This document shows, in pieces, positions 1-62,569 of a DNA stretch of 64,000 bases. The stretch lies in the IMG/VR virus record IMGVR_UViG_3300021431_000083, one strand, 5' to 3'. Position numbers and translations under genes: made by a program. Within the stretch, counting starts at the first letter, position 1. Each line of letters opens with the position of its first letter. This DNA is from a virus. Lineage: Duplodnaviria; Heunggongvirae; Uroviricota; Caudoviricetes. The notes beneath the pieces were generated by a model. It did no database searches and was not told the origin of the DNA. It saw only the letters and a program-made list of their open reading frames with translations.

Positions 1-1398
1 ATTTTGTGTAAAGATTGGATATTGACCACCCAACGTATCTATCTTTGTACGATTAACTGCATTATTCCTATTGGATATTTGAAAATCAAATTCTATCTTT
101 AACATTCTATTTTTCTTTAACATTCTATTTTTATCAGAAAATATTCCGCCATAAAAATCACAATGTAAAATATCATTACTTTCAATATAAATAGGTTTAT
201 AAAAATTTTCACCATTAATATATTGTAACTGATAACGATAACCAGTCATACTTTCAATTGTATTATCTTCTATAATTAACGGTAAAGAAGAAAGCTTATA
301 AGCACCTATTAAATCTCATTGTTTAAAATTTGTTTGATGTGAAGCTCGTCGTACAACCAAATTACCTTCGCTGAGAGTATTTAGTCCTTCGCTTAATGAT
401 GTAATATTTAATTTAATTATACCATTTTCATTATCAATATTTTTAGTATATTTAATATTTATATTTTGATTGGTATAATTCTCTATTGTAACAGTCATAA
501 TGATAGAATTATGATATCCGTTATTCGTTTCATATTCAATTTTTCAATAATAAGATCCTCTTGATGTATCAACAGTACAATTAATTTCATTTTTAGCATT
601 TATGTCCGCATATATTATATTTGTATCAAAATATAATGTAGATGATGCAGATATTTCAGATTGAATTTTAATTCTGTATCAAGATAGTCATTCAGTATTA
701 TTTTTTGAATATATATTTTCATCATATTTATATTTATCAAAAGTTAAATTTCCATTAACTGATATATTAGTACTTGGAAATACTGAAGAATTATTCTTAA
801 TATTAATATCAAATGTAGGAATAAAAATAGATTTTATTAAAGTTCCAGTTGACCATTCTGAAAAATTATCTTGATTATAATTTGTATAAGCAGCTAATTT
901 TAAAGCATTTGCGGCTTTATTAGAATTACTAGTCCAATAGAAGAACTCTGTTGGATTTGAATATTCTGTAGAATCCTTGGGAAGTGCGGGATAACCATCA
1001 CTACCAGTTAAATCAAATCGTAATTGAATTTTATAGTATTGATCGGGATTATAATATGGGCTAGTTTTAATTACTTGCGGTGGTATAGTAATTTTATACA
1101 TTTTTTTAGAAGAATCTCATAAAATGTCTTTCATATTTTTTACTACGCCATTTTTTTCTTCATAGCAAGAAATAGGGTAGTATTGCGGGTAAACATTTGC
1201 ACTACCATTTTTACCCGCAAATACATTTTCATTATTTCGTTGATCTACCATTGAAACATGAATAAATCTAATTTTATTTAACATATCTTCATTATAAGAA
1301 GATAGTTTAAATCACACCTCAGCAGATTCATTATAGCAGAAAGAAGGCATAAATGTCTCTACTTGCGGTGGATATATTGTGTTTATTGTTGTTGCCAT
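1..1398 (-). CDS. Virion structural protein (tail/baseplate region), runs off the left edge; needs TGA=Trp
   Basis: ATG at 1398 downstream of AAGGAGG; frame open to base 1 with 6 TGA and no TAA/TAG; joins track ORFs 688..1101 and 316..498. Confidence 0.75.
97..132. repeat. Exact 18-bp tandem duplication (ctttaacattctattttt x2)
   Basis: Seen directly; in frame, gives KNRMLK-KNRMLK. Confidence 0.9.
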
Positions 1399-1414
1399 TT
1401 TTTATTATGCCTCC

Positions 1415-2620
1415 TTACTTACCGAATTGATAAATGATTGTTGAAGAATACGGATAATTACCATCTATACTTTGCCCATAAGAACCGAATCTATCTTTTG
1501 CAACTACAGACCAATGATATGTTGTAAGATCACCATAAGTATATCAATATCCGCCGCTATCTGATGTATTATGTCCTTTAAAACTTGGGGCAATTGGACG
1601 TCTATCTGCTTCAGTTGAATATAATATTCTTTTAAAACAACTCGACCTTCCTTTAAAAGTTTTTTTGTCTGGTAAGGTACAACCTAAAAAAATAACAAGT
1701 GTTTCAAATTGTGGTCACACTTCAATATTTTTATATAGCTTAGTAGTCATTTGTGTATTATATTCACCATATGGATGGCCACAAAGATTTTGTAAATCTG
1801 GTCAAGGAGTCTCACGTATATATCCATTTTCATTAACATAAAAAGGACCATCTAAAGCATGGCCATAACGATCATCGCTTCAGCCTAAGAATTTTTGAGT
1901 TTTTCTTAAATTAGTTATTCTTCCAGCTCAACTAGAATATTTTACTTCAGTAATTTTTTTATTTAAATATTTAACAAAATCTGTACCATATAAAATCTTA
2001 TGAAAAGGAACTGATTTTTTTGTTGTTGTTATATATTTTTTCTCTTTTTCATCGTAATATTTAAAAGAAGATTGTCCTTTTATTGCCTTTTTATTAATTT
2101 TTTTTGTAGAAGTATTAGATATATTATGAACTGTTATTGTATAAGTTGGAACAGCTCAATGTGCATATAATGTTATCTCAGGCAAAATATCATCTTGACG
2201 ATAATTAAATAAAATGTCTTTTAAGTCATTTACTTCATCAATTTGTTTTCCACCATCTTTAGCTGTTCACCACCCTAAAAATGAAGCTACATCATTATAC
2301 TTCTGTAAATCTGGCAAGCCATCTTCATATTTATAATAATAATCATTTGACTTTCTATAAAAACCATCATTATAAAATGCAAAATAAACTTTTGGAATAA
2401 CCCTTTCCATCCACTTAGGTTCCGTACCTGGGATAGGACGCTCTTCTTGATTGCTATCTTTATACGTATAATTAATATCTAAATTAACTTTGCCTTTTGC
2501 ATATATCAACTCATCTTTATTATCAGTAATAACCAGTCTATATTTTTCAACATCGTCTACTATTAATTGTCTTATAGGTTTTTCAAGATTATCGCTATTA
2601 TAAACTAATGTTGCCGCCAT
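1415..2620 (-). CDS. Putative virion/tail-associated protein, 401 aa, 7 TGA
   Basis: ATG with AAGGAG; read-through of TGA gives FLGWW and FLGWS motifs; stop TAA at 1415-1417. Confidence 0.75.
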
Positions 2621-2631
2621 TTGAACTCCTT

Positions 2632-5600
2632 TTAAATACTTCCTTTATATGTATTTGGTTTCATCGTGTGAAAATTTCACTCATATTTTTTACTATCTTC
2701 TTCACTAAAAGCACCTTCAGGACTATTTTCTCTAGCTACATTTCTTAATCTCAAAGTATTACCATCACAAGCAATTCCTCAACGACAAGTATTATATCAA
2801 TCAAATAATCGTTCAAAATTTTCTGCTAAAAACTTAAAATAAGTTTTATCTTTTTTAATTAAATAAATTGCTTTCTCTATATTATTAACTTTATTATCAT
2901 CAGTATATCCTATATAAAGATTTTGCGCAGTATATAAATTGTTTTTTATAGAAACTTTACCCATAAGAGTTGACGGTCCTTCAACAGTAAGACCTTGACG
3001 ACCTTTAACAGTGATTTTATTATCAATATTTATACCAATGCTTCCATTAGAAGTAGATGATAATTGAATAAAATGTTGTTGTTGCTGATCTAAAAGTGTG
3101 GGAGCTTTCATTTGAATAAAAGCATTTCTATTCTTTAAAGTAATAATATTTTGATTAATATCAAATTCTAATTTCATGTTTTTAAAAGTAAAAGCACCTT
3201 TTTTATCATTTATTTTTATTGAATAGCCGCCGATAGTTTTTAATTCAACCTCGTTTGGACTAATAGCAAGACCAGTTTTCTTTTCTCCAACTTGTAGTTG
3301 AATTTTAGGTTCTTTTATTGTTTTTGTCACTGTTTGATCATCATTAGTTTCTTCTTTTGAAATAATATCAACAAAAGCGTTTATTCTATAATGACCATAA
3401 TCAATTAAAGTACTAGTTGCTTCAGTTCCTTTAAGGCTACTTCCATCGACAGAAGAAAGAATATACTCAGGAGTTTTTATTCGTACATACTTTTTATTTT
3501 TATTAGCAATTTGATATTGAATAATTTCATCAGGGAATGCTATTACCATTGAATTTGTATTAATAGATAAGTTTTTATTTAATTCAATTTTATTATTATC
3601 ATCGGATTGAATTTTAACTCCAAGTTTTCTATTACTATTAATTTTGCCAATTTGAATAAAACTAACAGCTTCTGGAACAGTATTTTCATTATTACTAGAA
3701 TACTGACTTGCAGCTAATTCAATATATCCATTTTCAGCAGTACGAATACTAATACTACCCTTATCATTTTGTCCTTGTGTAATATAAGTAGTATTCATTT
3801 GAGATTGAGATCCTGCTTTTTGAGAGAATATTTTTAATATAGGAACATAATTATTAGAAGAACCTTCTGCTCTAATTTCTTGACCATAAAGTTTAGGAAC
3901 TTTTCCAAAAGCATGAATTACACCAGTGCGGCTATATGTTTTTTTATCTTGTAGTCCCGCACTAAAAAAGCGACCGTTTTCATCAAGACCAACTCGGATA
4001 AATTCTTTTCAATAGATAAGTTGACTATTCAGAGTATCCTCATCAATTTCAATTCAAGTATTACTCGAATTTTTATTTTCAAATCAACTATTTACAATAC
4101 TAGCTTTTAAAGTTTTTATGTACTTATAAGATATATTATTATTTTCAGCTATATCAATATATCCATATTGTTTTTCATTACTAGTATTTTTAGAAGAATT
4201 AACTCTTTTTTTATAATCATCATAAAAACATACTCTTATACTATTATTTTTTCAATATGTCTTAGCATAAGGCACACCTTGAAGATTTATAATACCGGTA
4301 TCATCTTTAACGCAGAGTTTGTTTTCACCTTCTGGTGGTTTTGATCCTTTAACATTTTCTTTATTAATAACTCAATTAATATTAAAATTTCAAAAAACTT
4401 CTTGTTTATTATAATTATTTGAATTATTTTGATCCTTATCTCATTGTCCTCAATTTATTTGATAAATATTTTTATCTATCATGTCAACAACGTTCTCATT
4501 AATTAATCTATAAAAAGGTATCGTGTTAATGTCAGTATTTACAGTATTTTTAATACTATCCTTCTCTGCCGTTGGAGTACCTACGCTAAAATTTTCTTTC
4601 CCTTCATTTTGAACAACAGTAAAAGTAGCAATACGTCGTTCAGTGCCAGTAGTATCTTTATCAGTATTATTGTATGTCGATAATTCTGTTTCATACCCGA
4701 ACGTTTCAAGAGTATAGGCACCTTCTGAATAAAAACTAATATATCAAGGATTTTTAGCAGTCGGAAGCGGATAACTTGAATTATTTATTGTTTTTATTGT
4801 TGTAAGATTTTCCCATCGAGTATCTTGGTTACTAAAGAATTTTGCCAAATTCGTACCATCTGTTTGGCCTGCTGCAATCGCGGTATCACTACCTTTTCTT
4901 CAAAGAATAAAATCGTATTTTTTAGAAGCATAACTACTATTTAATTTAAAATAAAAATCACATGTATTACTATATTTCATAAAAGTATATTTTCCAGAAA
5001 TAGAATTTTTTCCATCATCTAATTTTGCTGTAAAACTAATCTCACTTCCAGAACTATAATTTTGAATTGACACCACACCATACTCAGAATCAGGAGCTGC
5101 TTTATATTGCTCAGCAGAATCACTTTTAATAGTACATGAACAACAAGTATTTATAGTATATTCTTTAATATAAAGTTTTAATTTTAATTTATACTCCGTA
5201 TTTTTAATTAATCCATTATTATTAATAGAATATAAAATAATATCTGAATTATTTTGAACTGTTAAAAGATCAATTATTTCTGATTCTAATATTGCTGCAT
5301 TAATTCCATCATTATCATTTAAAACAACATAAAATTGTAAATAATTGTCCGCAGAATTATCTAAATTTATTCCAGATAAATCATAGTTTATTTGACTATT
5401 AGAAAGTTTTATCTGATAAAGACTTTTATCTGATGTATTTTTTACAGTACCTATTTTAATATCTTTTTCAATAGACCCTGTTTTATTACCTTGATCATCA
5501 ACAACTTCTTGAATATCTTTAGTGTATTCAAAATTAACCACAAAACTGTTATTTGAAACAGTTTCTTCAGTAGTACATTGCCATCCTTCACCATTAGAAG

Positions 5601-8600
5601 AACCTTCTGTACCATTTTTCCAAGTTAAATTATTTGGATTATAAGTAATAACACCAGTATCTTTATCACAAGAAAAAACAGGATTATCACCAGCAGTCTT
5701 TTTAAAATTAACTTCTGGTAAAATATCTTTAAAGAATACACTACTATTTATAATTATATTTGAATTACTCCCACTATTTACTCAAATTACATTATTATCA
5801 TCTTGATAATAGGGTTGATAATTACCATTTGCATCTGTAGCTAATGAATAGATATAATATTCTGTATCTTTTTGGGAAGTAAAACTATTAATATTTTTAT
5901 CAGCTTGATAATCTCTTACAATAGTTACATCATTATTTGATGTTACATCTCTGTAACCAAAGTGTAAATCATCTATATTTTCATCGCCAAATCCAGAAGT
6001 ATGCTGAATAATAGAAAATAATGAATTATCACCAGGATCCATTCTTAATTCAAGACTATCACCAGGACTAATATTATTATACTCATCTTGATAATTAATA
6101 TTTTGTAAATTATTATTTTTATAAACTTCACCTTTAACATGAATATAAGGCTTATCTGAACTAAGAATAATACCATGCTTATCGTGCGGCACCATGATTT
6201 TTTCTAATTTATCAGGATGATCTATATCATGTCGAATATCATAAGTACCATCAACTATATTATAAAGAAAACGATTACCAATTTTCCAGTTACCAATTTT
6301 ACTAATACCGCCAGGAATTAATTCAATACGACCTTCATCAATTCCTACATTTGAATCCTGTTCTGGTAAACCTAAATAAGTACTACCTGTTTTAGCATCA
6401 ATAAAAACGGATTGTTTTCCATTTGAATAACCTATTAAACCAACTTTTTCAGCTCTGTCAGCTTTATCTAAAACACTCTCTGTCTTATTTTGGTCTGGTG
6501 TTGCTGTATTACTAATAGCACCCATGACCATACCTGTGAAAGTATTTGTAGCACTATCTTTAATACCCGCACCTATCTGCGGTGTTAAAATATGGTCATC
6601 ACCAATTTCAACATTTGTACCATCTCAACCATTCAAAGCCGCAAGTTCATATGTATTTAAAGTCATTATAATTGGTACATATACTTTAGCAACTACATTA
6701 TCCTTATTACCTTGTTTAATATGGACAGTACCAACAACATTGTTATTCATATATAAACCATTAAAACTCTTCTTAGAGTCAGGCATAACATAAATTCAAT
6801 TTAATTGTTGCGGATTTTGACCTTTTAACAATGACATTCAAACACTTAATGTGTCAGATTCTTCTGCTACATGATACTTCTGAACATTTAAAAATAATTG
6901 TTGATAATAAGCATATATTTTTCTAATACCATCATATACTTCTGCCATTTCTTCCCCAGAAGCTTTTATAACAGCTTTAATATTTTCTTTAATATTATTT
7001 AAATCTCAATCAGTAACAATTGAAGCATACTGGTTCTTAACCTTTTCTTTTAAATCCTCGCTTGGATAATTATAATTATTATCATCAAGACGAGCATTAG
7101 TTTCATCTACTAATAGATTTAAATAAGCCATTAATACTTGAGTACACTCAACCAATAGAGGATGACCTGTATATGTAGTCTTATCATTATATTCATTTAA
7201 ATAATCTTTTATAGTTTTATCAAACAAAGTACTCTTATCTATTATCGCAGTACTACTATCATCAGAACGACTATTATAAACCTGTTTATATCTTTCAACT
7301 AATTGTTCTATATTAGAAATATCACCAACATTAGTATTATTTTGAATATGCAAACGATCTTCTGTAATAACACTTGGTCACTCACTATTTCAGATAGCTT
7401 GTACTGCATCATATGGCTTAGTACATGCGGCGTTTATATCTTGCCGCGACTCATATTCTTCTTTTATCGTTTCAAATAATTCAGAATATATTTGATAAAC
7501 AATATTAATTTGACTATTTTCTCTATCAGGACTATCTTTTAAGAAAGTATCTAGTCTATTCCAAAGTGAATCTAATTTTATCGGAATGGTTAATAAACCA
7601 TCTATAGCAATTCGCTCAATATCATTTAAGAATCTCTTAATATATTCTTGAGTATTGACATCTATAGCACCTTCCGCACAAGCTTGTCCTCTATCTTGAA
7701 TATCTAAAATCCTAGTTTGAACACTAACAACATCATCAGCAATTTTTAATGTTGTATCTCCTTCTTTTACTCTTGGAGTTTTAGATAATAATAAATTAGG
7801 ATTATTATTTGTAGGACCGCCAGTAGCAATTCATTCTAAATAACCATTTCAATTTTCTAATTCTACATGGACACCCTGATTCTCATTATAAATAGGATTA
7901 TTACCACTAGAATCATATAATACAGTTTTTAAAGTATCTTTATCTATAATCCTAATAGGATAGTGCTCATAATCATATCCGCTTTCATATTCAATCGCGG
8001 GAATACCATAAAAACTATGATAATATTTACCTTGTAAACTAACTTCTGCTTCTACAATTCTAGTATCTAATTTAGTTAAATCACCATTATATGCAATGGT
8101 ACATTCATTACTGTTATTACTAGTACCACTTACTTTATAGGTGCGGCCTTGATCTTTAGAGGTTCCCGCAATAGTTCACTTAGTATTATATCCTAATACT
8201 TGATTATTATTAGTATATAAATTAGCTTCTAAAACAGGAGTACTAATAGAATTACCATTATTATATTTAGTACTATTAGACTGTTTGATAATTGTTAAAG
8301 GTTCATCAACTGGAATATTAATAGTTGTAATTTTATCTATCTTTACAACAGTATCAGTACCATTTGTACCAATCTCACCAATTTTAGTAAATAATAAATT
8401 TGTAGTTTGTCGATATTCTGTACCATCCGCATGTGTGACAATAACAGTTAATTGATTATTGTTACATTGACTATCATAACTATCTTTAATGCTCAACGGA
8501 TAAACATTACCAGAATAATATCTTTCACCAGTAACTACATCTGTTTGCAATCCAAGAGTAGGAATATTTATTAAGGTTCTATCTTGCGGCACAACCCATC

Positions 8601-10500
8601 GAACTTTTCTAGGAGTTACTTCCGCACCTTGCGGATTATGGAATACTGCTGTTAAATCTAATACATTAATAGGATTCTTTACTTTTTCACTATTGGGAGC
8701 AATACCGGCTTCATTATATTGAAATACTTGTGATCCATTCGTAATAGTAATATAATAATTATTGTTAATTACATTCTTAGAGTTTTGTAATGTAATAGAC
8801 CCGTAACCAACATAAACTCCGCCTCTATAAACAGAACAAGAATAAATAACATAATTATTAGTATTTTTTAACTTGCAAGTAATTTGCGGCCCATGCACTC
8901 CATTTGGATATGATATATTTTCTAATTGTGAAATTCGAGTAGAATAATAAGACAATATTTCAGTTATTTTGCCGCTATTTTTACTGTCCTGAAGTTTTTC
9001 GTCTCTTTCTTTTTCTAATTGAGCTTTTGTACCATCTAAAACTATAGTACCAAACTCTTCATCTTCTTTGCTTCAAACAAAAGAAAAAGCGCTATCTGAA
9101 TATTTATCTTGATAATCACGAGTTTTACCGTTAATTAAACAGGTTAAAGTTGGACTACCTTCATTGAATTGAAAGTTTGTACCTTGATCACTTTCAATCG
9201 TAATGTTTATATCATTATTATTATTGTATAAAGAAACAGAAGCTTTTAATACAATACTTGATTCGTATGTTACAGTACAAATATAAGTATTTTCTCTTGC
9301 AGTAAGATCACCTACATTTAATACCAGCTCATCTTTTTTATTATCAAGGTATCTATATCCCGTACCTATTTTAAAATTATACCCATCAGTAGTTGAAGTG
9401 ATGGACGGGTCTTTGACTCCTCAATAAAAAACAGCATCCTTATTGATAATCTGACCTAAATAACTTAAATTAGCACTAATCTTTAAGTCTTTATTTTCAC
9501 CTTGTTTAATAGTATTACCTCAAGGAGTAGTTAATCTTAACTTATAACCATTTTCGGTAGCAGAAATTTCATCAAGAGCAACAACTTCTAGCTTGTCTAT
9601 ATATATATAAATATCATCGTCATTATCATGTGCCGCGATATCTTGATCAACGAACCCTTCACTAAAAGCGACAATAGAATCTATATATAAGAAATTTTCA
9701 CCATCAAAATTCTCTATAGTATATTGTGAAGTATAATCATAAAACCGCATTGGATTACCAGTCATTTTACTGGTATCAAGAACATAAGCAATTAATCTTG
9801 GAGGATAAACAGTTTCCCCATTTTCATCTGTTTGCGGATTAGTAGTATCCGCAAATGCAATATTTACAATAATACCATAGTTACCAATTTTATCAGTATC
9901 TATTGAAGCTTTAAACCTACTTCTAATTAATAATGCTTTTGCATTTTTAGCAGAATTACTAAATTCTTCCTCATTAATATTTACACATGGATAATTGAAA
10001 TTATCATATTTATCATTTAATTCACTAACATTACTTGGATTCCGCAAATAACAGTAATAGTAATGCATCTGAAGATGTGAATTTAAAGACAACGGCTGCA
10101 TCTTATGGGTTTTAATTTCACCCTCTTCAGCAGAATACTTATTTTCAATAATAGCATTATCACCAAGAGTAACATAGTCATTTAATAAACCCGTAGTTGG
10201 TGATTTAGGTAATAAGTCTTCACCATTTTCAGTTCTTCCGATGATAAATTTCTTTTGTCCCATATCATCTTCTGGAACTAATATATAAACTTGTTCTCCT
10301 TCTTGATAAACTTCTGTAGAACCAGACTGAGTGTATGCATAAAAACTTCCACCATTACAAGTAACAAAATACTTACCTTCAGAAGTACTAACAACTTTTT
10401 CAACAATGGCTTTAATCGTTTTATCAGAAGAAACTTCTTCTATGGTTTTATTGGCAATAATAGAAATAGCATCTAATAATGTTTTTGTTAAATTCGCCAC
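2632..10500 (-). CDS. Very large tail/baseplate-type structural protein, 2622 aa, about 26 TGA
   Basis: GTG start with AAGGAG; six track ORFs (9520, 8176, 7006, 5782, 4900, 2797) share one frame and are separated only by TGA; stop TAA at 2632-2634; function inferred from size and context. Confidence 0.8.
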
Positions 10501-10823: not shown

Positions 10824-11132
10824 CTACTCTTGGACTGGTGGCTGTTCATTCACAAGGAATTTTTCAACCGTCTCTTTAGCATTTGAACTAGTTGCACTAA
10901 TTGTCTTAGTTGTTGAAGTAGTTGTAACATTACTTTGTAAACTTTGACCATCGACATAAGCTTCTGCAGCCGCATAAATTGCCGCACTTAATACCGCACA
11001 AACAATACCAACAGCCGCAATAATTTCATTATTAGTCGCAATAGCACTAATAGAAGCTCCAACAGAAGCTAAAAATGCGGCAACAGCCATTCAGAATTTA
11101 CGAGAACCTAACTTACTAGATAGAGATTGCAT
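10824..11132 (-). CDS. Holin-like membrane protein, 102 aa, TGA at codon 14
   Basis: MQSLSSKLGSRKF(W)MAVAAFL...; SRKFW N-terminus plus two hydrophobic segments; SD GAAAGGTGG; stop TAG. Confidence 0.7.
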
Positions 11133-11148
11133 TAAACCACCTTTCTCT

Positions 11149-11832: not shown

Positions 11833-11850
11833 AAAATCTCCTTTTTCTAT

Positions 11851-11886
11851 TTAATATTAAATAATCCTTCAATATTATTTAATTTT
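11851..11886 (-). promoter_or_regulatory. Variant of candidate late promoter (AAAAT-N4-TAATA-N16-TATTAA)
   Basis: Same spacing as 10539-10574; AT-rich context weakens it. Confidence 0.3.
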
Positions 11887-51113: not shown

Positions 51114-51122
51114 CTCTCCTCC

Positions 51123-52001
51123 TTATAAAGATAAAATATTAATTGGTAAAATATATTCATTATCATCTGTTGTGTAAATAAGATTAAATTTACTCTTTTT
51201 ACCAGCAATAATTTCGATATTACATTTACCATCTTGTTGACTTATAATATTAGCTTTAGTTAAATCATTAACACTAAAAGTTCCTGTTATATCATTAATT
51301 TGATAATTATATTCTTCATAGGGATAAACTTCTTGCGGTCCAATTATTTCACTGTTAATATCAAGATGATTAACTTCAACAAGATCTTCTGTTAAACTAT
51401 CAAAATATTCTTGAACTTCAAGTTCGATAATTCCAGGAACCGTTAAAACATCAACAACTTTAACTTGTCAAGTATGTCCATCAATTTTTAATTTAGTAAA
51501 ACGATTAAAAAAGTTTCTTGTTTGCTCATTATTTTCAATGTAAACAGTACCAGAAAAATTTAAATCATTTCAATTTAAGTCCCGCTTAAAATTTCAACGA
51601 ATAGTTGTTTCAGTTGGCCCCTGAAAATAAATCCAATAGTCAGTATCTTCTATTGTTATCTGATATCTACAACGGATAATTTCAGATTTAAAATAAGCAA
51701 TTTCCACTAAGTCTTGTAAATAAATCATTCAATGAGTGTTATCATCTAGACATTCAAATACGTCTCCAGGACCAAGACCAGATGAAAAATCAACACTAAC
51801 ATAACGTTTATCATAATCAGATTTAGTATTATCATCATTAATTAAAGCTTGAAACTCTTCTCCAAGAGGAGTAAGAATAGTTCTTGAATTATAATCATTT
51901 TTTAATGCCGCATAAAAAGATTTTAATTTTTGCTGTTTAATGCGGCCCAGGTTATTTCCACCCATATAATCAATTCTAGTTTGAAGCGTTTTTAAAGACA
52001 T
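51123..52001 (-). CDS. Putative head-closure/neck protein, 292 aa, 4 TGA
   Basis: Frame open to TAA at 51123; role inferred from position. Confidence 0.7.
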
Positions 52002-52010
52002 TCTTCGCTC

Positions 52011-52325
52011 CTAACTATTAAACTGTTTTTCAATATTTTGAGTTAAAGAACAACATTCAAAAATAATGCGGCGGAATCATTGAAATTCAATTTCTTCTCC
52101 TTGAGCTTTTAAACCTTCTAATTTAGCCAATAATTCAAATATTTTAATATCTTCTGGAAATAGATTGGATAATCCCGCAATTTCAAGTATAATTGTATCC
52201 AGAGGTTTTAGCCAATCTTCTCCTTCTTCATTCGCTGGCAGAAGATGAAATATTTGATTTTTTAACCTATTAAGATTAAAAGCTATTACTGAATTATCTA
52301 CTTCACTATTATATATGGTCATCAT
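52011..52325 (-). CDS. Hypothetical protein, 1 TGA
   Basis: Extends to TAG at 52011. Confidence 0.7.
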
Positions 52326-52789
52326 TATTTTACCTCCATAATAGTGTCAAAAGTAGTCTTATATTGCCCCTCATTATCTAAAGTGCGGCGACAATAAAGT
52401 CGCTGAAGATGAAAGCCATGTCGTTCATAATCTTGTTTCATGGCAATTAATTGTTTCATATGAGAAGCTTGAGAAGTAAATTTAAAATCACTACCACTAT
52501 ATTTTTGACGTATATTATCTATAGTTGCAAGCTGATAACCAATTCATTCTGCAATCATATATTGACGAATAATCATCATTTCTTCATTTGTTAAATCAAC
52601 AACAAAGGAACGATTTTGTAGGTCGATATTATGCAATTGCGGCTGTTTAGGAAATTCAAAAGACGGTAGCGCCGCAATTAGAATTTCATCTAATATAGCT
52701 TTAGTGTCATCTTCTGTTAGTTCCATATACATGTCATCAGTTATACCCGCAAGAAAAAAATCTTCCATCGTATCAAAGGATGTAGCCAT
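52325..52789 (-). CDS. Putative head-tail adaptor, 1 TGA
   Basis: YMIAE(W)IGYQL...DFKFTSQASH; stop TAA overlaps the next ATG. Confidence 0.7.
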
Positions 52790-52812
52790 TTAAACCTCCT
52801 TTGGTATAAATT

Positions 52813-53367
52813 TTATTCCGATGCACGACGTTGATTTTGTGATGCACCTGTATTAGAAACAACTCGACGAGTACCACGAGAAGGAGTCTCTTCTTTTGGA
52901 TTCTCTAATTCTACATCCAATTTAATCATATTACCAACATCGCGACCAGTAAATTCTTGAATTGCAGCTAGTTTGTTATTGTCAGGTATCCGCAACTCAA
53001 TAGCTCTATCAATAATAAGCTGTTTAATACCTTCTGGGCCAAACTCTAAAGCATCCTTTAAAGCGTCTAGTGATCCAGTTTGAAGAACTTCATCAACTTC
53101 TTTTTGAGTCCATGAATACTCATGGTCAAATACGTCTGTTGAAATATTAAATTCTTGTGCAAGTTCTCTATCTTTAATACCTAAATAATCTTCAATTAAT
53201 ACTCTACCGCCCTTAGTACCATATAAAGATCTAAGTTCACCAGCGGTAATATCTTTACGTAATTGTTGACCAGAAAAACGTCTAACATTATTAGTTTCAG
53301 GTATGATATAAGAAACAGTACTTGCTGTTAGATTTTGAACTGGGATAAGTTTGTCGTCTCTAATCAT
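52813..53367 (-). CDS. Hypothetical protein after the major capsid gene
   Basis: Start reassigned to ATG 53367 (AAGGAG). Confidence 0.75.
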   Translation of the reverse strand: MIRDDKLIPVQNLTASTVSYIIPETNNVRRFSGQQLRKDITAGELRSLYGTKGGRVLIEDYLGIKDRELAQEFNISTDVFDHEYSWTQKEVDEVLQTGSLDALKDALEFGPEGIKQLIIDRAIELRIPDNNKLAAIQEFTGRDVGNMIKLDVELENPKEETPSRGTRRVVSNTGASQNQRRASE

Positions 53368-53395
53368 TATTTTCTCCTTGTATCTCTTGGAAAGC

Positions 53396-53424
53396 GGGGC
53401 AACTATCAATATAATAGTTGCCCC
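53396..53424 (-). terminator. Hairpin downstream of the major capsid gene
   Basis: ggggcaactat/atagttgcccc; weak U-tract. Confidence 0.6.
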
Positions 53425-53449
53425 AGCAATCATGTTAATTTAAATTAAC

Positions 53450-54511
53450 TTAGCGAGTTTGGCTAAGTGAAGAGTTAGTATAAGCACCAATAAAGTGTTT
53501 GCCCTCAAGCTGAGCAATAGTGCCAACGCCAACCTTTACATAAGTTTGAAGATCTGTGCTCCAGTCATCATTGTCCTCAACGGAACGAGTTTGAGCTTGA
53601 CCCTCAAAGACAATCTTAATAGGCTTTTCAGTTCCTGTGGGAATCATATAAGCAATTTGAGGATTAACTACCTTGGTTTTATTATCAATATCAGTAAAAG
53701 ACTGAGCTAGAACAACTACATTGTGACCCTTATAGTTACCGAGCCAACCATTATCCCATAGACGGTTCTTCATATCGCCACTCATACGAGCGTCACTAGG
53801 AACCATCTTATTAGCAAATTCTTGGGTGCAATAAATAGTGGCCTTGCCATAAGTATCAATTGCAGCAAGTAGATCATCAAAGTCATCCTCTATAAAGCCA
53901 TTACCAGTAGCCTTATTCTTAGCAGGTAGAGCTGCAGCTAGAGCCGCGAGTTCATCCATAATTGTCTTATAAATATACTCGTCAATGCCCTCCATGATTA
54001 GAGTTGTAAACTCAGAGAACTCCCAACGACCATCAAGGAATTCTTCAAAGCCAATACGAGCAGCACCAGCGATGGCACTTGTCTGGACCTCTAATTCCTT
54101 ACCGTCAAGCATGAAGGTTTCATAACGACCAGCAAGACCGGCACGAGTAACAAAAGTCTTAGCACGACGCTTAGAAGCATCGGTTACCTTTAGACGGAAA
54201 ACTGCACGGTCACCTTGCGGAATTGTCTTAACTTCAGCAAACTGAGCATATTGAGCTTCAACACGAGGAGGAAGAACCTCAGTAATTGTCTCTTCAATTA
54301 GCTCGAAAATAGTATTTTCATTCTTCTTAAATGTGCGATAGCTGCAACCCTTGCCTTCGACATAGCCGCAAAGATCACGGAATTCCTTAGCAACTGCCTT
54401 GGATAGTTCTGCAGAAGTAAATTTTTCTTCGCCGCAAGAATAAGCGACAGGAGCGTTCTTTTCAGCACCGAATGCAGCAACGCAAAGTTTCTTTAGATCA
54501 CTAAATTCCAT
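53450..54511 (-). CDS. Major capsid protein (probable)
   Basis: 353 aa after portal, protease and decoration genes; strong GC-ending codon bias; no TGA. Confidence 0.8.
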   Translation of the reverse strand: MEFSDLKKLCVAAFGAEKNAPVAYSCGEEKFTSAELSKAVAKEFRDLCGYVEGKGCSYRTFKKNENTIFELIEETITEVLPPRVEAQYAQFAEVKTIPQGDRAVFRLKVTDASKRRAKTFVTRAGLAGRYETFMLDGKELEVQTSAIAGAARIGFEEFLDGRWEFSEFTTLIMEGIDEYIYKTIMDELAALAAALPAKNKATGNGFIEDDFDDLLAAIDTYGKATIYCTQEFANKMVPSDARMSGDMKNRLWDNGWLGNYKGHNVVVLAQSFTDIDNKTKVVNPQIAYMIPTGTEKPIKIVFEGQAQTRSVEDNDDWSTDLQTYVKVGVGTIAQLEGKHFIGAYTNSSLSQTR

Positions 54512-54531
54512 GTTTTCTCTCCTCTCACAAA

Positions 54532-55083
54532 TTATTGGGCATCAGCAATAATACGAATTTTTACAGCTGGAGTAATAGCATCAGGAAGCGTATACTCCTT
54601 AATAACCTCAGCGAAAGCAGTCTTACCAGTTGGAACTGTACTAGAAAGTAGACCTTGAGCATTAGGATAAAGCTTAGCTCCAACAGCATAAGAAGCTGCA
54701 TCTGCTAATGTATTTGTAGTATAAATATCGCCAGGCTGGACGGCAAAAATACGAGGAACTAATTTACCATCAGTAAAATCAGCGGCCTTCATAGAATAAT
54801 CACGATGTGACTGCTTGCGCTCATCATAAAGTTTTTCTTCATTAAAGACCATGTACCAAGGACCATCAGTAGCATTATCCATATTTAGATTGCCATCAAC
54901 AGCGTCATATTTAACATACATGCCATTCTCTAGTTCAGTAATAGTGCTAACAGCTTCATACTGAGCATAGACTTGACCATTACGGGGTGCGGACAGATGG
55001 TTAGGTTCAACAACACCTTTCTTACCGGCATCAGCATTTGCTGTTTTACCATCTGCGCTCTTACGATAAATCGCAATAGACAT
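54532..55083 (-). CDS. Head decoration/capsid-associated protein (probable)
   Basis: Between scaffold and MCP; VEPNHLS...GQVYAQ...ENGM; no TGA. Confidence 0.65.
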   Translation of the reverse strand: MSIAIYRKSADGKTANADAGKKGVVEPNHLSAPRNGQVYAQYEAVSTITELENGMYVKYDAVDGNLNMDNATDGPWYMVFNEEKLYDERKQSHRDYSMKAADFTDGKLVPRIFAVQPGDIYTTNTLADAASYAVGAKLYPNAQGLLSSTVPTGKTAFAEVIKEYTLPDAITPAVKIRIIADAQ

Positions 55084-55112
55084 ATTTCCTGTCCTCCTTC
55101 TAAAAATTATAA

Positions 55113-56447
55113 TTAGTTATTCTTGGCATCACGAAGTGCCTGTAGCACAGGAGACACTACAGTTGTGTCTACTGCGGCATCTAGTGAAAAAGTTGTAATG
55201 GGGTCTGTATCGATTTCTTCGACTTCAGCCTTTTTACCATCAACTTCACTAAAATCAACATTTTCTTTAACAAATGCTAAAGCAAGCTTGGATTCAATTT
55301 CTTCAATAGTATATTCATTTTTATGATCAGAAATTTCTTTACGAGCTTCATCACTTAGCATATGATATTTAGCAATAAGTGCATCCTTTTGCTGATTTTC
55401 AATCCCTAGTTTAAATTCACGCAGAGATTCAAGCTCAGCCTTTGTAGCTTCAAGTTCAGCTTTTACTGCTTCAAACTGACTTTCAATCTCTTCTAGGGCA
55501 TGATTCTGACGAGGTTTCTTCTCACCAGTTTCGTCGTCATCTGCGGCCTGCTCTTCATCGTCAGACTCTTCTTCCTCGCCAGATTCTTCATCATCTTTAT
55601 CATCATCATCCGCAAAGGAAGTTGGAACGACATCGTCAGCATTGGATTCTGCTTGGAACTCAGTTTCCTCTACTTCAACTTCTTCTGTAGTTTCTTCCTG
55701 AACTTCTAGAGCAGTTTGATCCATATCTGACCCTCCTTCGTTATATTGTAAAGCATCTTTTAATTCATTCATCATAGTAAACAATGTATTCATAAATTCA
55801 TCTTTTACAGTAAAATCTTTACTTACTTGTTTGTCAGTAACAGCCGCACCTTCAAAACAAGGTTCAACGTCAGAACCTAAAATACATAGTTTACTAAAAG
55901 TTGCATCATTAATAATAAAAAATTCAACACCAGATTTTGTATTTGTAGCCCAATGTCCATCTAATGATGCTTCGTCTAATTCCATTGATTGCGGCAAACC
56001 CTCATCAATAGCTTTCTGCACTTCAGGATATTGTCCTGTTCAAAGGTATCCCGTAGTCATTAGATATTTACGAGTAGTTTCATTACCAAATTCATCTGTG
56101 TCAACAAAATCTTTAAACCAGACTTTTGCATCAGGGGCAACGAAACCATAAGGTTGAGTCTTACAAGAGAACTTTATTTCTCCATCTTCAATTGTGACAA
56201 CATGTCCATGATCACCAAAATCATCTTTGTTTTCAATAAAAGCTGCAACGATTGGTGTGCCGGGGAGAGAATTCGCCATGTCTTTAGCAACATCCTCCGT
56301 GATGTAAGAACCGTTGCGGTTCTCTCCCACGTATAGGACTTTAATTTCACACTGAGAGATTAAAGGATTATAAGGTTCAATGTTAAGAAACTCAGGTGCC
56401 GCAATTGTAGCAACTGATTGATTTTTTAACATATCACTCACTCTCAT
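55113..56447 (-). CDS. Prohead protease/scaffold fusion, 444 aa, 1 TGA
   Basis: GENRNGS, TTGYL(W)TGQY, QSME, CILG..VEPCFEGA; acidic linker; coiled-coil C-terminus. Confidence 0.8.
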
Positions 56448-56449
56448 TT

Positions 56450-58036
56450 TTAGCCAGAAGCCTCAATATTACGGAGAGTCTTTTCAGACTTTTCGTCATC
56501 TGGCTTTTCTGGTCTCCCGCCCTGTGATTTTTCTGACTGGGCGTTGTCATCTTTCTTTTCTGTTGTTTTATTTCTACCTGAATCGGGTGCCTTAGTTCCG
56601 CTCATTGTAGAAGACATTTGAGGTGGAACAAACAAATCGTTTAATGAAAGCATACCATTTTCAAAACATGCAGTTGCAATAATTTCACTTTGAGACATTC
56701 CAAGAGCAACCTGAGGTAATAATTTGGAAAACCCAATTTGAGTTTGTTCTTTATACATCTTAGACAAATCTTTATAATTATAGATTGTCGTAGGTAAAAT
56801 AGAAACAGTGTATTTAAGCCTCTTGGGGTTCCTATTGAATGCCGCAAGTAGACGTTCCGCATATTTCTCAAATTGTAATAACAAATCAGTCATGGTAGCT
56901 TCGTCATTTGCGATTGATTTGTCCAAAGCAGTTTGACCGTCTGTATTGAATTGTTTCTGGCTAACGCCCGCTTCATTATAAAGTGAACGTTCAACCCTCT
57001 CCAATTCATCTACAGAGGTTAAATTACTTCTGTCTGATAAGTCAGCAACATCAACATCCGCAAACGTTGTTAAGACACTAATTCCAATAGTATCACCCAA
57101 CATTGCAACCGCATTATTATGCAGAGCATTTGCTTCTTGAACATCAAAGATTAAATCACCATTTTTGTCAATTGGCATTTGTTGAATAATAATCTTTAAT
57201 AATTGTTGTGCCATCTTATCTCTATCTAGTTGTTTCGCATCTTCCAAATCTAAAATTGCGGGAATCACAGGTATAAACAGTGGCGCGTCACTGTTACACA
57301 GAGAAAACTTTACAACTTTAGACGGATCGAGTAAAAATCAACCACTATCATCGCCATTAAAATCTTTTGGTAATTTACCTTCTTTATAGGCGATATATGC
57401 TTTTTGAAATTCCTTTGGAAATGTTTTTAGTACACGGAGTTTATAAACATTATCAGTAAAGAAATCATCAAAAAATTTTATATTGAATTCAACCGCTGGT
57501 ATACCATCAATCTCGTAACGAGAACGACAGTAATCAGGGTGTAATTCCTGTAAGAATGCGGCTGTTCCTTTATCTAAAATATATCCATAGTAACAGCCAT
57601 TTTTTATAACACTTAATGCATATAAACCGAAATTTCTTTTAAGATTAGATTCTTCTAAATACTTAGTAGCTTTTATCCATCCCTCTATAACTTTTTCGTC
57701 TTTAACTTTATCATCATATCGCTGTGGCGTTACGGTCCAGTCATATCGGTATAGGTAAGCCATGTATCGACATAGTCTTGAATAGATACCGCTTGTTTCA
57801 AAGAAATAATTTGAAATACGTCTCATTTCTTTGATATCGCGTCTATTAATTGCGCGTTCAACGGTTTGTTTATCGTAAAGACGATTGGAAGATTTGTAAT
57901 AATTAATTAAAGTTGCAATCTCACCATTTAAAGTATTTTTACCTACTTTAATTTTAGAAAAGTCAAGAGTGGAGGTATTTGTTGTATTAGAGTGTAATCT
58001 AAAATCTCTTTGATGCTTTTCTTTGTAAAAAGCCAA
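56450..58036 (-). CDS. Portal protein (probable), 528 aa, 1 TGA
   Basis: Joins track ORFs 57338 and 56450 through SG(W)FLLDP; TTG start with AGGAGG; between terminase and protease. Confidence 0.8.
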
Positions 58037-58046
58037 ACCGCACCTC

Positions 58047-58406
58047 CTAATAACCGTTAATCAGATTCATTAAATAATCATAGGTTAATCGGTTTTCTTC
58101 TGTAAATGGAATAGTTATTAACCTATATCCATGTTCTAAGCAGTATCTTCGTTTTAATGTATCGTTATGCTGTTGACGGAAAAGTCCTTTTTTACCACCA
58201 AATTTACTAACTGGTACATAGTGTTGACGTCCATTATATTCAATGAGACAATCAATATTTCCATCATCATCAAAACAACAAAAATCAAAACGTAAATGTT
58301 TACCATTTTCTGCGGTTAAATCATCAAAAATATATTCTTCTTCAAAAGGGATATTTCCATAGGTTAAAAATTCATGAATTTTAATTTCACCTTGGCTTGA
58401 TAACAT
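58047..58406 (-). CDS. PD-(D/E)XK / Vsr-like endonuclease
   Basis: S.GE..I...L, LRFDF, IEYNGRQHY, D..KR.YC. Confidence 0.8.
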   Translation of the reverse strand: MLSSQGEIKIHEFLTYGNIPFEEEYIFDDLTAENGKHLRFDFCCFDDDGNIDCLIEYNGRQHYVPVSKFGGKKGLFRQQHNDTLKRRYCLEHGYRLITIPFTEENRLTYDYLMNLINGY

Positions 58407-58439
58407 TTAACCACCTCCTTAACATCTTACGTTCTAATA

Positions 58440-58475
58440 TATATAAATTTTGTGAGATAGGAATTATTAAATTTT
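58440..58475 (-). promoter_or_regulatory. Candidate phage late promoter AAAAT-N4-TAATT-N16-TATATA
   Basis: Matches 10539-10574 in boxes and spacing; heads the portal-capsid operon. Confidence 0.45.
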
Positions 58476-58499
58476 GATAAAAATACTAAAAAATTTTTT

Positions 58500-60269
58500 T
58501 TAGTGCATAATGGGTTTTGTATACATCATAAAATCTGATATATTGCGGCTAGAACGTTTTCTACCTTTATCTTCTTCTAACTTACAATAATATAATCCAT
58601 ATATCAAAGCAGAAAATTTATCGTGTTTAATTTTTTTATTTGCGGGCTTGAGCAAAATATTGGCACCTTCAGATTCTTCAATTAAATTTGCCATCTGTTC
58701 CCGCAATATATTTGTTTGAACATACGGAAGAAGATATTCCGCACGTTTTTCAGGTGTCATTTTTTTACCTTGGGCCTGAGCCATTAATTTATTTTTAGCA
58801 ACACTATCATCAATTAAGAACTTAATTTTACCATGCTGTAATTGAGTTTGACAATATGAATACATTTCAGTATTTAATGGAGCAGTTGCTTTCATTATAT
58901 ACATTGCATTATGAATAGTATCTGGTGTTTCAAATCTTTTATATTTTTGTCGTTCATCGTCATCTTTGTATTGAACACCTCAATTATATAGTGTTTCACC
59001 TGTCTCTGGATCAATTTGATCTGTTACTAAAAAGTCAACTAAACCACTACCAAGGCCATTTCCGTCTACAACCGCAATTTTACAACCATATTGATTAAAC
59101 AACTGTTTAATTTTAAGAGCCTGAATACCGAAATGTTCCGCATCAATAGTATAAATATTAACGAGTTGTTTTAAAGGCACCCCACTTGGTGCAGGAGATA
59201 CTTTAAAAACACAAATTTCTGTCGTACAATTAAAACGTCCAACGTCTACTCCGAGTATATAATATGTCTTACTACTATTTCGACCATTAGGTTTATATTC
59301 TGGAAGATTTAATATCCTGTTACGATCAAATACTTCATAACTAAAGAATGCGGATTCAATATCTCCTCCTCAGTTACTATTATATTCTCGATCAAAAGTT
59401 GCTTCATTAAAAGTACCTTCCATCTTTAAGTCTGATACGAAACTACCAGGAATAAGTCCTTCTTTAACAGGAATACGTCAATCTCCACCAAAAATAAATG
59501 CTTCTGTTGGTCGTGCAACCATTTGACAAAGCATTTGAATAAGTCTATCATATGCATAAGTATTTTTATATCCCGCAGAAGTAATAAATGTTTGAGATTG
59601 ATTAAGTATTTCATTAGGATCTACATCACCATTAGGGAGACGTCTTGAAACATTCATTGTAGGAATAATAACTTGCTGCAATAAATCTTGGTCAAGAGTT
59701 GCGGCCTCTTCCATTAGCCCTGCTTGGAAACGTCTACCACGAGTTTTATCACTGCATGCAACATTCTCTATAGTACTACCATTACGGAAAGTATAAATAA
59801 CACTGTCTTTAGTTTGACGTGTTTTTACATTTGCCATACCACGAGTATCCCATAAAATTTCTTTATTAAAAGCAGGTATTAATTTACATATTTCACTAAG
59901 CTTATCACTCAAAATTGAAGCTGACTGCTCTTTACCTTCTGAAACTGTGAACAAGTGCGCTCCAGGATATAGTATAGCTTTGATCATTAATGCCATAACC
60001 GATAAAAATGATTTAGAATACGCACGACAGAAAACCGCATATGAATACTTGTGCCGCATAATTACCCGCAACGTGATACGTTGGAAAAAATAAAAATGAA
60101 ATGCATTATCTGGATTGAGACTACATAAATAATCTACGAATCTGTCTGGATACATTCTCCAATAGGCAATAACATGACGATATTCACTTATATTTTGCCG
60201 CAATAAATCTTCTGTTATTTCGATTTGTGTATTATCTTGTTTAGCGGTAAGTAAATTACTAAGAGCCAT
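58500..60269 (-). CDS. terL: Terminase large subunit, 589 aa, 3 TGA
   Basis: CRAYSKS (Walker A-like), RGRRF, MEEA (Walker B), ITSAG, GVDVGR nuclease motif, KHDKFSAL; stop TAA. Confidence 0.9.
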
Positions 60270-61477
60270 TATAACTCACCCGCAATCATACGTGCTTCTT
60301 CTTCAATTTCACTCTCAAGATATTGATAGAATTCTTCTGCTTCTTGATCAGTGATTGCGTTCGCTTCCTCATCTGCCGCAGACAAAATAAAATTATCATT
60401 CATCATATCTTCACTCGCAGCTTTGTCTTTTTCAGCTTGTTCAAGTTTTTCAATATATGACTCGATAAGATTGCCTAATCCCAGTTCTTTTGTTACTAAA
60501 TTATAATTGTATTGTTTCATATCTTTAATACAGAAATCTATCTTATCTTCTGGATAATCATCTGGTAATGGAATTTGCGGGATGATTCCGCCTTCTTTTT
60601 CACAGAACAGGACAAGTTCTCCAATAGAGTCAAGATAGCGAGTTTGCCCTTCTTTATTTTGAGCTTCTGTGAACTTAGCAGATTTGCGGAGAGCGTCATA
60701 TGAAGATTGTAATGATTTATATGTTGAAGCATCGCCCACGTCTAAAGCTTGATCCATTTTAAGCTCAAGTTTACAAATTTGTTTAAGCGTAAGTTCACGG
60801 TCTACATTAAGTTCATATTCATTAGCATACTTAGTATAAGTATCTTCCATATGTACTCATTCAGAAGGTTTATATACGATGCCCCACTTAGCCGCAAGCA
60901 TCTTTTTATCTTCATCTGTTAATTCTGCTAAAATGTCATCTTCATTTATACCTATTTGCTCTTGGTCAAAAGTGTATTTGCGGCTTTGCTGTCTTTCCAC
61001 TCCCCGCATAAGAGGATTAAGAGTATCAAATTCTGCTTGAGAAATTTCTCCCGCATCGAGTTTAGCTTGAAGATTCATAAATTCTTCTTGCTCATTTTCA
61101 TTAGTTAAACTTACTCGTGCGGCTGCTTCTTGTTGGCGTTTTTCTTCTTCTGCGGCTAGACGTGCTGTGTCTGCGTAAGTGAGATTGCGATATTGTGTCA
61201 TGTTCATGCGCCGCAAGTAACGACCAATAACTGAAGCTCCTGAAAAGTTTGCGGGATTTTTATCATAGGCATTTTGAGCTTCTTCTTTTCAATCTCGTTC
61301 AATATAGGGTACATCGAATTTTTCAAGTATTCATTTAAATGTTGAAGGGTCGCTGTTATCTATGTACATTGTGAGACAAGTTTTGCATACTGGATAACGT
61401 TCATGATTTTTCATCATGAAAAATTCTTTTTCAGCCTTCTCTCTGCCGCACTGTGTACAAGCAATTTTTTCTGGCAT
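60269..61477 (-). CDS. Zn-finger protein upstream of terL (small-subunit candidate), 402 aa, 3 TGA
   Basis: CTQC...CKTC; joins track ORFs 60857 and 60269; stop overlaps the terL ATG. Confidence 0.75.
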
Positions 61478-61486
61478 AGTCTCCTC

Positions 61487-62569
61487 CTATTTTTTCTTTT
61501 TTTTGGTAGAACGGCATTCTTTACACTGTGGATAATATCCATCACTAGAAATAGGAGAATGATCAAAGAAAAGAGGGTTTGCGACTTTCCATTCGCCGCA
61601 TTTAGAACATTTTTTCCATAGCCCGTATTCTTCTTGGGTAAAATGTCAAGTAATTCATTCTTTGCGGGCTTGCTTGGCTAAAATGTTTGGAATTTGTTTA
61701 CGTCAAAGAGTAGAGTAATATTGTTCTGAATGTACGACACCATGCTCTTGCCGCATAAGTTCAACAATATCTTTATTTTTTAAACCATCTATTTTTCAAA
61801 CAATTAAATCATATAAAATTGGATTATCAGGATTGTCTTTTAAAGTTCTATCTATGAGATCTTCTAAATCTACAAGCAATCACCGCAAATCACTATTAAG
61901 ATCTTCATCAATTTCTTGTTTTAATTGAGAATAATAGTTTAGTAAGAATGATATGTGTTCTGGTTTAAGGAGTGTTAAAGTTGATTTAATTTCTAGCTCA
62001 CCATCTGGTAAAACTTTTACTTTTTCTTCAAGATCTATATATCCCATTTGCCGCATTTGCGGGGAGAGTCGTCCGGTTGCATTCTGTTTATATGATGCTT
62101 TAATAATATAGATTTCTTGTCATGTTTCAATTATTTGTTGTTTTAGTTTGAAACGTTTTGAACTATCTGTTGTAGATTCAAAAGCTTTTTTAAGAGATTG
62201 TATTGTTCTCATTTTCTCTTGGAGAGCAGGGTCGTTTAAAGCTTCTTCTTCTGAAACTTTTTCTTTACGATCTAATAATTGGTTTTTATCATTATTAATT
62301 AATGCATGAAAAGCATCTTCTCCACCTTCTAAGCTATTAACAATATCTTCATATGATTTTTCTCTTTTTTTAATAATTGTTTCTCTGTTCTTTGTAATTA
62401 AATTATGGCCTTTCGTTTGACCTTTTTCTCTGATAAATAAAATATAATCACCTAAATAATTAAGATATTTTTGAGTTAACTGTTCTTTAGGAGTGGAAGC
62501 TATGACTTCTTCAACACATTTAGCTCTTTCTTTTGGTGTTTTAAGTGAATAATCTAATTTTACTGTCAT
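61487..62569 (-). CDS. Putative transcription regulator (sigma region-4-like HTH plus C-terminal Zn finger), 360 aa, 6 TGA
   Basis: V(W)KIDGLKNKDIVELM...SEQYYSTL(W)RK; CSKC...CKEC; stop TAG. Confidence 0.65.

Follow-up and report, generated by a model that had tools for sequence, protein, structure and literature searches.

The IMG/VR virus record IMGVR_UViG_3300021431_000083 (Caudoviricetes) was analysed as one stretch of 64,000 nt, which we call the window. It has a G+C content of 31.7% and, with TGA taken as a sense codon, 56 open reading frames (ORFs) that cover 92% of it in long co-directional blocks, with Shine-Dalgarno (SD) sequences on most. Here, we ask what TGA means in this DNA and describe the one tRNA that could read it, a phage-encoded tRNA with the anticodon UCA. 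We find strong support for TGA as a tryptophan (Trp, W) codon, which is used in late and some middle genes and is absent from the replication genes. The blocks and genes that carry the argument are as follows:

1..10500, minus strand: three large ORFs, probably of the tail region (1-1398, which runs off the window end; 1415-2620; 2632-10500)
11383..15295, minus strand: left block of four TGA-free ORFs, including a metallophosphoesterase (TGA 0, TGG 24)
17365..36871, plus strand: replication block of 14 ORFs (in-frame TGA 0, TGG 72)
43362..43856, plus strand: RuvC-like Holliday junction resolvase (in-frame TGA 4, TGG 1)
43968..45680, minus strand: endolysin with ELLD and GH25 muramidase domains (TGA 13 vs TGG 3, the strongest bias in the window)
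45625..46128, minus strand: holin-like ORF (TGA 1; two transmembrane-like segments), directly upstream of the endolysin
46216..46312, minus strand: tRNA(UCA) of 97 nt, the only tRNA of the window, between the lysis genes and the head module
46569..62569, minus strand: head/packaging module of 17 ORFs, virion proteins included (TGA 27, TGG 22)

With TGA read as sense (code 4), the 55 complete ORFs end in TAA (42) or TAG (13) and none in TGA, as an earlier note on this DNA, made from the sequence alone, had said of every gene. Taking the longest ORFs, before any correction of start sites, there are 94 in-frame TGAs over 26 ORFs, while 30 of the 56 ORFs are TGA-free, all 14 replication genes included. 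Coding density, measured on a greedy set of non-overlapping ORFs, rises from 0.79 under code 11 to 0.93 under code 4, in line with the recoding which that note had proposed. The gain is confined to positions 1-10500 (0.54 to 0.89) and 43362-62569 (0.72 to 0.96); the replication block has a density of 0.96 under either code, and reading TAG instead of TGA as sense brings little gain. In portal, terminase, lysin, and RuvC, the family matches run across the TGAs.

For the residue test, we aligned the window proteins, with X at each TGA, to 47 related phage loci. About 770 residues were aligned to TGA columns, and W is by far the most common (442), followed by Y (85), F (49), L (36), I (29), R (27), P (26), S (18), G (4), and C (1); TGG columns have the same residue profile. 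When columns are weighted equally, W is the majority in 16 of the 26 informative TGA columns, and on BLOSUM62, W scores a mean of 5.9 per TGA column, compared with 1.6 (Y) and 0.7 (F). The four nearest relatives are the IMG/VR contigs G001, G002, G003, and G004 (98%, 94%, 72%, and 59% identity in the portal). Compared with these, a TGA of the window stands opposite TGG 41 times and a TGG of the window opposite TGA 21 times, 62 swaps in total; since hardly any other codon occurs at these places, TGA and TGG behave as synonyms. The shortfall of Trp codons in the late genes is also made up exactly by TGA: TGG and TGA together make up 12.9 per 1000 codons in the TGA-bearing genes, and TGG makes up 13.2 per 1000 in 20 TGA-free genes. 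Judged by these alignments, Trp is strongly supported as the meaning of TGA, over glycine (Gly), serine (Ser), or selenocysteine (Sec), and Gly, Ser, and Sec/Cys are excluded as its main meaning. The preference for Trp in the earlier note, and its expectation that TGA columns are Trp-enriched among homologues, were thus well founded.

That note had also quoted seven motifs with TGA at Trp sites, and all seven are present with TGA at the residue it gave. Among them, PSH(W)RK is in RuvC, GGD(W)RIP in the terminase, and TGYL(W)TGQY in the ORF at 55113-56447. The two lysin sites, described as family-typical Trp positions, fared differently: in GH25 enzymes of solved structure, W occupies the PL(W)MA site (350) and lysin residue 377, and the LD(W)E site (300) is I or L. 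As for the names given to two of the motif-bearing proteins, no family match confirms the "protease," and none supports the "holin," although both holin candidates do have two transmembrane-like segments.

The number of recoded genes depends on where the genes start. Between the replication block and RuvC lie three genes in which this matters or can be compared; with dUTPase and RuvC, they form the nucleotide-metabolism/recombination block:

37405..38055, plus strand: guanylate kinase-like gene whose single TGA, codon 36, falls within the matched domain
38057..40354, plus strand: NrdD, anaerobic ribonucleotide reductase, whose sole TGA is codon 28 of the longest ORF
40293..40823, plus strand: NrdG activase with TGA at codon 9, and at codon 124 (WTGYT(W)DEL), the latter within the gene

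In NrdD (codon 28), NrdG (codon 9), and the ORFs 16342 and 16565, the TGA lies inside or beside the SD sequence of a likelier start (38138-38152, with cTGAGGTGattatATG before NrdD; 40317-40346; 16387-16407; 16586-16597), and the TGA of ORF 36822 is possibly upstream of the true start too. The likelier start is 38150 for NrdD, where the TGA of codon 28 overlaps the SD sequence, and 40344 for NrdG; on this reading, NrdD is probably TGA-free. Because such SD-bearing starts lie downstream, taking the longest code-4 ORF over-extends 5' ends and inflates the count of recoded genes. The earlier figure of about 25 genes that are full length only with read-through therefore fits the longest ORFs (26) and drops, after start correction, to probably ~22-23 genes with ~90 TGAs left. 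We had also considered an N-terminal "TGA lock" in the middle genes (NrdD, NrdG at codon 9, and ORFs 16342 and 16565), which was rejected for the better SD-bearing starts just downstream of the TGAs. The nucleotide after a sense TGA shows no significant difference from that after TGG (p = 0.39) or after all codons (p = 0.29).

The TGAs are very unevenly distributed along the window. As a fraction of Trp-like codons, they amount to 0/72 in the replication genes, 0/24 at 11383-15295 (left block), 0.27 in the nucleotide-metabolism/recombination block (before start correction), 0.55 in the head module, 0.78 in the tail region, and 0.83 in the lysis genes; the difference between TGA-free and TGA-bearing genes has a Fisher p of 9e-28. 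The TGA-free ORFs contain 113 TGAs in frame +1 and 659 in frame +2, so the absence from frame 0 reflects selection. Recoding is limited to late and some middle genes, and the description of it as genome-wide does not hold.

This early/late partition is the main argument against a host that itself uses code 4, with the phage matching its host as mycoplasma and spiroplasma phages do. A code-4 host would account for TGA never being a stop and for its meaning Trp. Low-GC code-4 organisms, however, use TGA for Trp in all genes, and here TGA makes up 0/96 Trp-like codons in the replication and left blocks against 81/117 in the lysis, tail, and head genes. The phage has its own tRNA(UCA); its portal relatives are phages of standard code, phages that read TAG as glutamine (Gln), and phages of Enterococcus, Bacillus, Clostridioides, and Lactococcus; and its endolysin is a GH25 muramidase, which implies that the host has a wall. 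Altogether, we regard a code-4 host as improbable. We infer a standard-code host from the TGA-free early genes, the phage-borne tRNA(UCA), the standard-code and TAG-to-Gln relatives, and the combination of ELLD and GH25 in the endolysin. A practical consequence of the recoding is that annotation under code 11 leaves ~40% of the late region mis-annotated as fragments, and the window is a clean example of early and late genes written in two codes, most strongly in the lysis genes.

The tRNA at 46216-46312 has the anticodon UCA (46276-46274), an encoded CCA, and G73. Its acceptor stem has 8 bp, its T stem 4 bp, and its anticodon stem 6 bp, and a long variable arm lies at about 46265-46245. G001, G002, and G003 each have a homologue at the corresponding position, and the stems show many compensatory changes. 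Two features flank the gene:

46511..46539, minus strand: sigma-70-like promoter (TTGACG, 17 nt, TG-TAAAAT), a consensus match only, ~200 nt upstream of the tRNA
46151..46181, minus strand: 14-bp hairpin that resembles an intrinsic terminator and has a T run, immediately behind the tRNA

The gap from the promoter-like site to the tRNA is filled by a small ORF (46314-46487, minus strand, ~57 codons) with a good SD sequence, a TTG start, one in-frame TGA, and a stop 2 nt before the tRNA. The sequence flanking it is conserved in G001, G002, and G003, and it may be co-transcribed with the tRNA.

The 8-bp acceptor, the 6-bp anticodon stem, and the long variable arm explain why ARAGORN calls this gene tRNA-SeC and why it scores 42 bits on the Rfam tRNA-Sec model. 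These same properties speak for another residue at TGA, be it Ser (long arm, G73), Sec/Cys (likeness to tRNA-Sec), or Gly (code 25). We consider such a reading very improbable, as S (18), G (4), and C (1) are rare among the ~770 aligned residues next to W (442), TGA and TGG are exchanged between relatives like synonymous codons, and the phage tRNAs(UCA) that were analysed by mass spectrometry all inserted Trp (bioRxiv 10.1101/2025.10.30.685624). Code 25 was rejected on the count of G. Selenocysteine decoding was rejected as well: the Rfam score is below the 47-bit gathering threshold, C occurs once in the alignments, and ~90 TGAs in 22-26 genes leave no room for a selenocysteine insertion sequence (SECIS) at each, although SECIS elements were not searched individually.

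The decoding activity of nearly this tRNA has been measured. In a published reporter screen in E. coli extract, tRNAUCA-26, which differs from the window tRNA at 3 of 97 positions (two of the changes conservative and in the variable stem), gave a UGA-reporter signal of 48431, compared with 69124 for the wild type and 5403 without tRNA, and tRNAUCA-20, which is identical to the tRNA of G003, gave 26699 (bioRxiv 10.1101/2025.10.30.685624). The same study analysed 13 tRNAs(UCA) by mass spectrometry, all of which inserted Trp; the 13 are not named in the paper (bioRxiv 10.1101/2025.10.30.685624).

We screened the window ORFs against Pfam and found no RF-1 or tryptophanyl-tRNA synthetase (TrpRS) domain. 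Likewise, a six-frame search of the contigs of the four relatives, one of which (G003, 139.8 kb) is judged 96% complete, yielded no RF-1 or class Ib synthetase domains. With no such gene found, the host TrpRS must charge the tRNA, and the tRNA must outcompete host release factor 2 (RF2); in a lineage without a synthetase or release-factor gene, the entire change of code must rest on one tRNA of 97 nt.

We therefore propose, and think it very probable, that this is a ~140-kb tailed phage that reads TGA as Trp in its late genes by means of its own tRNA(UCA) in a standard-code host. The window would be 64 kb of that genome, and the host would be Gram-positive (Bacillota-type), from gut or rumen. 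The early replication genes, TGA-free and with Trp always as TGG, would be translatable by the unmodified host, while the lysis, tail, head, packaging, and some middle genes have TGA at Trp positions. The phage tRNA(UCA), encoded beside the lysis genes, would be charged with Trp by the host TrpRS and compete with RF2, so that TGA is read as Trp. Full-length late proteins would then be made only once the tRNA has accumulated, which would act as a gate on lysis and assembly, and TGA would never be needed as a stop. Both the timing of this switch and the role of the variable arm in charging are our inference.

Several observations weigh against this proposal. In 10 of the 26 informative TGA columns W is not the majority (Y, F, L, I, R, or S is), which closely resembles the picture in that minority of TGG columns where W does not lead. 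Two of the TGAs, located 3-7 codons before the ends of their ORFs, could be leaky stops. The tRNA comes within a few bits of the tRNA-Sec threshold, and its long variable arm and G73 are the main identity marks for seryl-tRNA synthetase (SerRS), so some Ser insertion is possible. The tRNAUCA-26 is not stated to be one of the 13 tRNAs analysed by mass spectrometry.

The variable arm of the tRNA offers a possible answer to the question of charging. The arms of G002 and G003 form stems of 7-8 bp, with covariation between the two, and share an identical 7-nt loop, GUCCAAA, which equals a tRNA-Trp anticodon loop in shape and sequence. In the window, the loop has 10 nt (CCCUCCACAA), with U-CCA at 46257-46254. 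For a motif-blind sample, we scanned IMG/VR for the anticodon arm alone, with UCA and with CUA. Among distinct long-arm tRNAs(UCA), UCCA is found in the variable region of 39/54 and a Gln-type motif in 1/54, whereas 25/30 long-arm tRNAs(CUA) have U(C/U)UG(A/C), the tRNA-Gln anticodon with its flanks, and 0/30 have UCCA. An alignment of 41 UCA tRNAs gives a cloverleaf with an additional hairpin in the variable region, whose loop has 7 nt; in that hairpin, both-sided compensatory changes occur in 4/4 predicted pairs, and U-C-C-A and G73 are invariant across the 41 sequences. The UCCA arm occurs on both tRNA-Trp-like and Sec-like bodies, and the body in the window is Sec-like. Re-reading the published screen, we find that the arm-bearing tRNAs(UCA) are active in 13/13 cases (26.7k-59k) and that 2/18 of the others are strongly active, a contrast that is our own reading of the table and for which tRNA lineage and low-confidence tRNA predictions are confounders. 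The arm is not discussed in that study (bioRxiv 10.1101/2025.10.30.685624), and our literature search found no description of an extra-arm suppressor tRNA, though such tRNAs themselves have been assayed.

These patterns suggest that the variable arm could be a spare Trp anticodon (xU-CCA-Ax), through which the host TrpRS, which reads C34-C35-A36, might accept a tRNA whose own anticodon is UCA; we give this an even chance of being right. More broadly, code-switching phages may show in the arm the anticodon of the inserted residue (CCA for Trp at UGA; CUG or UUG for Gln at UAG) and let the host synthetase charge the tRNA, a generalization for which we judge the case to be equally balanced. On the competing explanation, the arm would be left over from the duplication of an anticodon arm, or would have another function, for instance in processing, in modification, or as a nuclease decoy. 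There are several points against a spare anticodon. The 10-nt loop of the window is not a clean copy of a 7-nt anticodon loop, some genuine Caulobacteraceae selC genes have GUCCAAAAG in the variable arm by chance, and the screened tRNA(CUA) number 44 has a UCCAAAG arm. In addition, a long arm with G73 could attract SerRS, and the activity difference in the screen is confounded as noted above. If the spare anticodon is real, the arm, and not a phage synthetase, would be the key device of TGA-to-Trp recoding in this phage. It would be a testable answer to the question raised by Borges et al. of how host synthetases charge phage suppressor tRNAs, and such arms could serve as parts for engineered genetic codes.

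Similar tRNA architectures are known from other contexts. The selC and allo-tRNA genes (Mukai et al. 2017, PMC5389517) share with the window tRNA the UCA anticodon, a long variable arm, G73, and a 12-bp branch made of an 8-bp acceptor stem and a 4-bp T stem. The window tRNA differs in falling below the Rfam tRNA-Sec threshold, in serving ~90 Trp positions without SECIS (with the limit on that search given above), and in a loop that shows the Trp anticodon. Engineered tRNAs with a pseudo-anticodon in the variable arm (Mukai 2020, PMC7590224) likewise have a second anticodon-like hairpin there, which recruits the anticodon-binding domain of a synthetase; those are synthetic and made for fusions of histidyl-tRNA synthetase, whereas the present arms, with their putative function, occur naturally and are common among suppressor tRNAs of phages. 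In code 4, Mycoplasma and Spiroplasma and their phages also read TGA as Trp with a tRNA of anticodon UCA, but they use TGA genome-wide and have no RF2, while the window has TGA in late genes only, a phage-borne tRNA, and a walled host.

We also looked for the tRNA outside its immediate relatives. In 27 related loci, no tRNA was found up to 10 kb away from the portal, and an exact 19-mer of the anticodon arm, as well as a pattern with the window's own T arm, matched only the two nearest relatives. A scan of genome contigs for the tRNA motif returned mostly true selC genes of Caulobacteraceae, and the phage-type tRNA in five contigs of metagenome-assembled genomes (MAGs) from gut or rumen. Two of the contigs, L473 (CACXHH010000254.1, "Clostridiales bacterium RUG11260") and L483 (Bacilli MAG140), have a tRNA(UCA) with a UCCAAA arm and ORFs that are open with TGA read-through. 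These low-GC contigs, binned in rumen/gut MAGs, are probably phage contigs and give a weak hint of the host.

The portal places the window near phAss-1, Enterococcus phage EF1, and large phages of Bacillus, Brevibacillus, Lactococcus, and Clostridioides. Within the portal family (L001-L047, 42-98% identity), there are loci whose ORFs are open under the standard code, with TAG read-through, or with TGA read-through, so this one family has undergone several changes of genetic code; for such phages, code changes over short evolutionary distances have been described (Borges et al., bioRxiv 10.1101/2021.08.26.457843). The large terminase (TerL) is 52-55% identical to those of three 135-kb contigs that carry an Agate-type tRNA, and the tRNA(UCA) of these contigs barely differs from its counterparts in the Agate representative and in cattle phages. 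On these identities, the window is related to the Agate and phAss-1 group.

Agate and Jade phages, whose hosts are Firmicutes of animal and human guts, are known for an early/late partition, a bias in lysis genes, and suppressor tRNAs (Borges et al., bioRxiv 10.1101/2021.08.26.457843; Nat Microbiol 2022). Like the window, they have low GC, genomes of ~130-140 kb, TGA at Trp in structural and lysis genes with replication genes in standard code, the greatest bias in lysis genes, a suppressor tRNA(UCA), and close relatives in other codes. The link to these recoded phages that the earlier note had drawn is thus borne out by partition, lysis bias, suppressor tRNAs, and TerL. Late-gene TGA-to-Trp recoding in Firmicutes-type gut phages is established, and the window is a further case. 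It differs from the Agate representative, which has a tRNA-Trp-like body, in the Sec-like 8/4 body of its lineage, and from Jade phages, which have a "code-change operon" of TrpRS and RF1, in that none was found in the window lineage.

The phage phAss-1 of the proposed Phassvirus (PMC10607447) is, like the window, a large siphovirus with a tRNA array and recoded virion genes. Its portal is 38% identical to that of the window, and, as in the window, it has phage suppressor tRNAs and no synthetase gene (PMC10607447). It reads TAG as Gln (code 15), whereas the window reads TGA as Trp, and the long arm of its 88-nt Sup-CTA shows CUGA and not UCCA. This tRNA (L138:15343-15430, minus strand) adjoins NrdD, and its arm is not mentioned in the published description.

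The remaining parts of the window complete the gene map. In the tail region, the ORF at 2632-10500 encodes a product of 2622 aa, and the three ORFs together have 39 TGAs in frame and 11 TGGs. Pfam and PHROG searches gave no match for these large ORFs; the alignment with G003 spans 1927 aa of the 2622-aa protein, with TGG mostly opposite the TGA sites of the window. The replication block encodes GyrB, GyrA, an ATP-dependent ligase, AAA_24, DnaB helicase, RecJ, Pol III alpha, and two GIY-YIG proteins. Most late proteins matched no family in Pfam, an Rfam search of the window at gathering thresholds gave no matches, and neither did megablast of 23 kb of the window against GenBank phages. The following genes can be added:

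10824..11171, minus strand: small holin-like protein (two transmembrane-like segments) whose single TGA is in SRKF(W)M
56450-58036, minus strand: portal (TGA 1)
58500-60269, minus strand: large terminase (TGA 3)
61487-62569, minus strand: sigma-factor/HNH-like gene (TGA 6)

A family search with the holin-like ORF at 10824-11171 gave no match. In this ORF, an ATG directly follows the TGA (SRKF-TGA-ATG), just before the first transmembrane segment, so the gene could yield a long product by TGA read-through and a short one from the ATG. Such a scheme would resemble the dual-start arrangement of holin and antiholin.

Two observations concern the head module. The ORF at 61487-62569 has a PHROG match annotated as sigma factor and a C-terminus like HNH/endonuclease VII; it is possible that a putative transcription factor would itself depend on the code switch. 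Three ORFs in a row at 52813-55083 (minus strand; 206, 353, and 183 aa) are TGA-free among TGA-bearing neighbours. Scaffold and major capsid are possibly among them, and it may be that the recoded codon is avoided in virion genes of very high expression.

Finally, four ORFs have no counterpart in the four nearest relatives, while the genes that flank them are 85-92% identical. They encode a 401-aa protein of no recognised kind (1415-2620), a GIY-YIG endonuclease (32130-32750), a family-2 glycosyltransferase on the opposite strand (40868-41878), and a 478-aa protein likewise of no recognised kind (47144-48580), and they look like mobile or swappable insertions.

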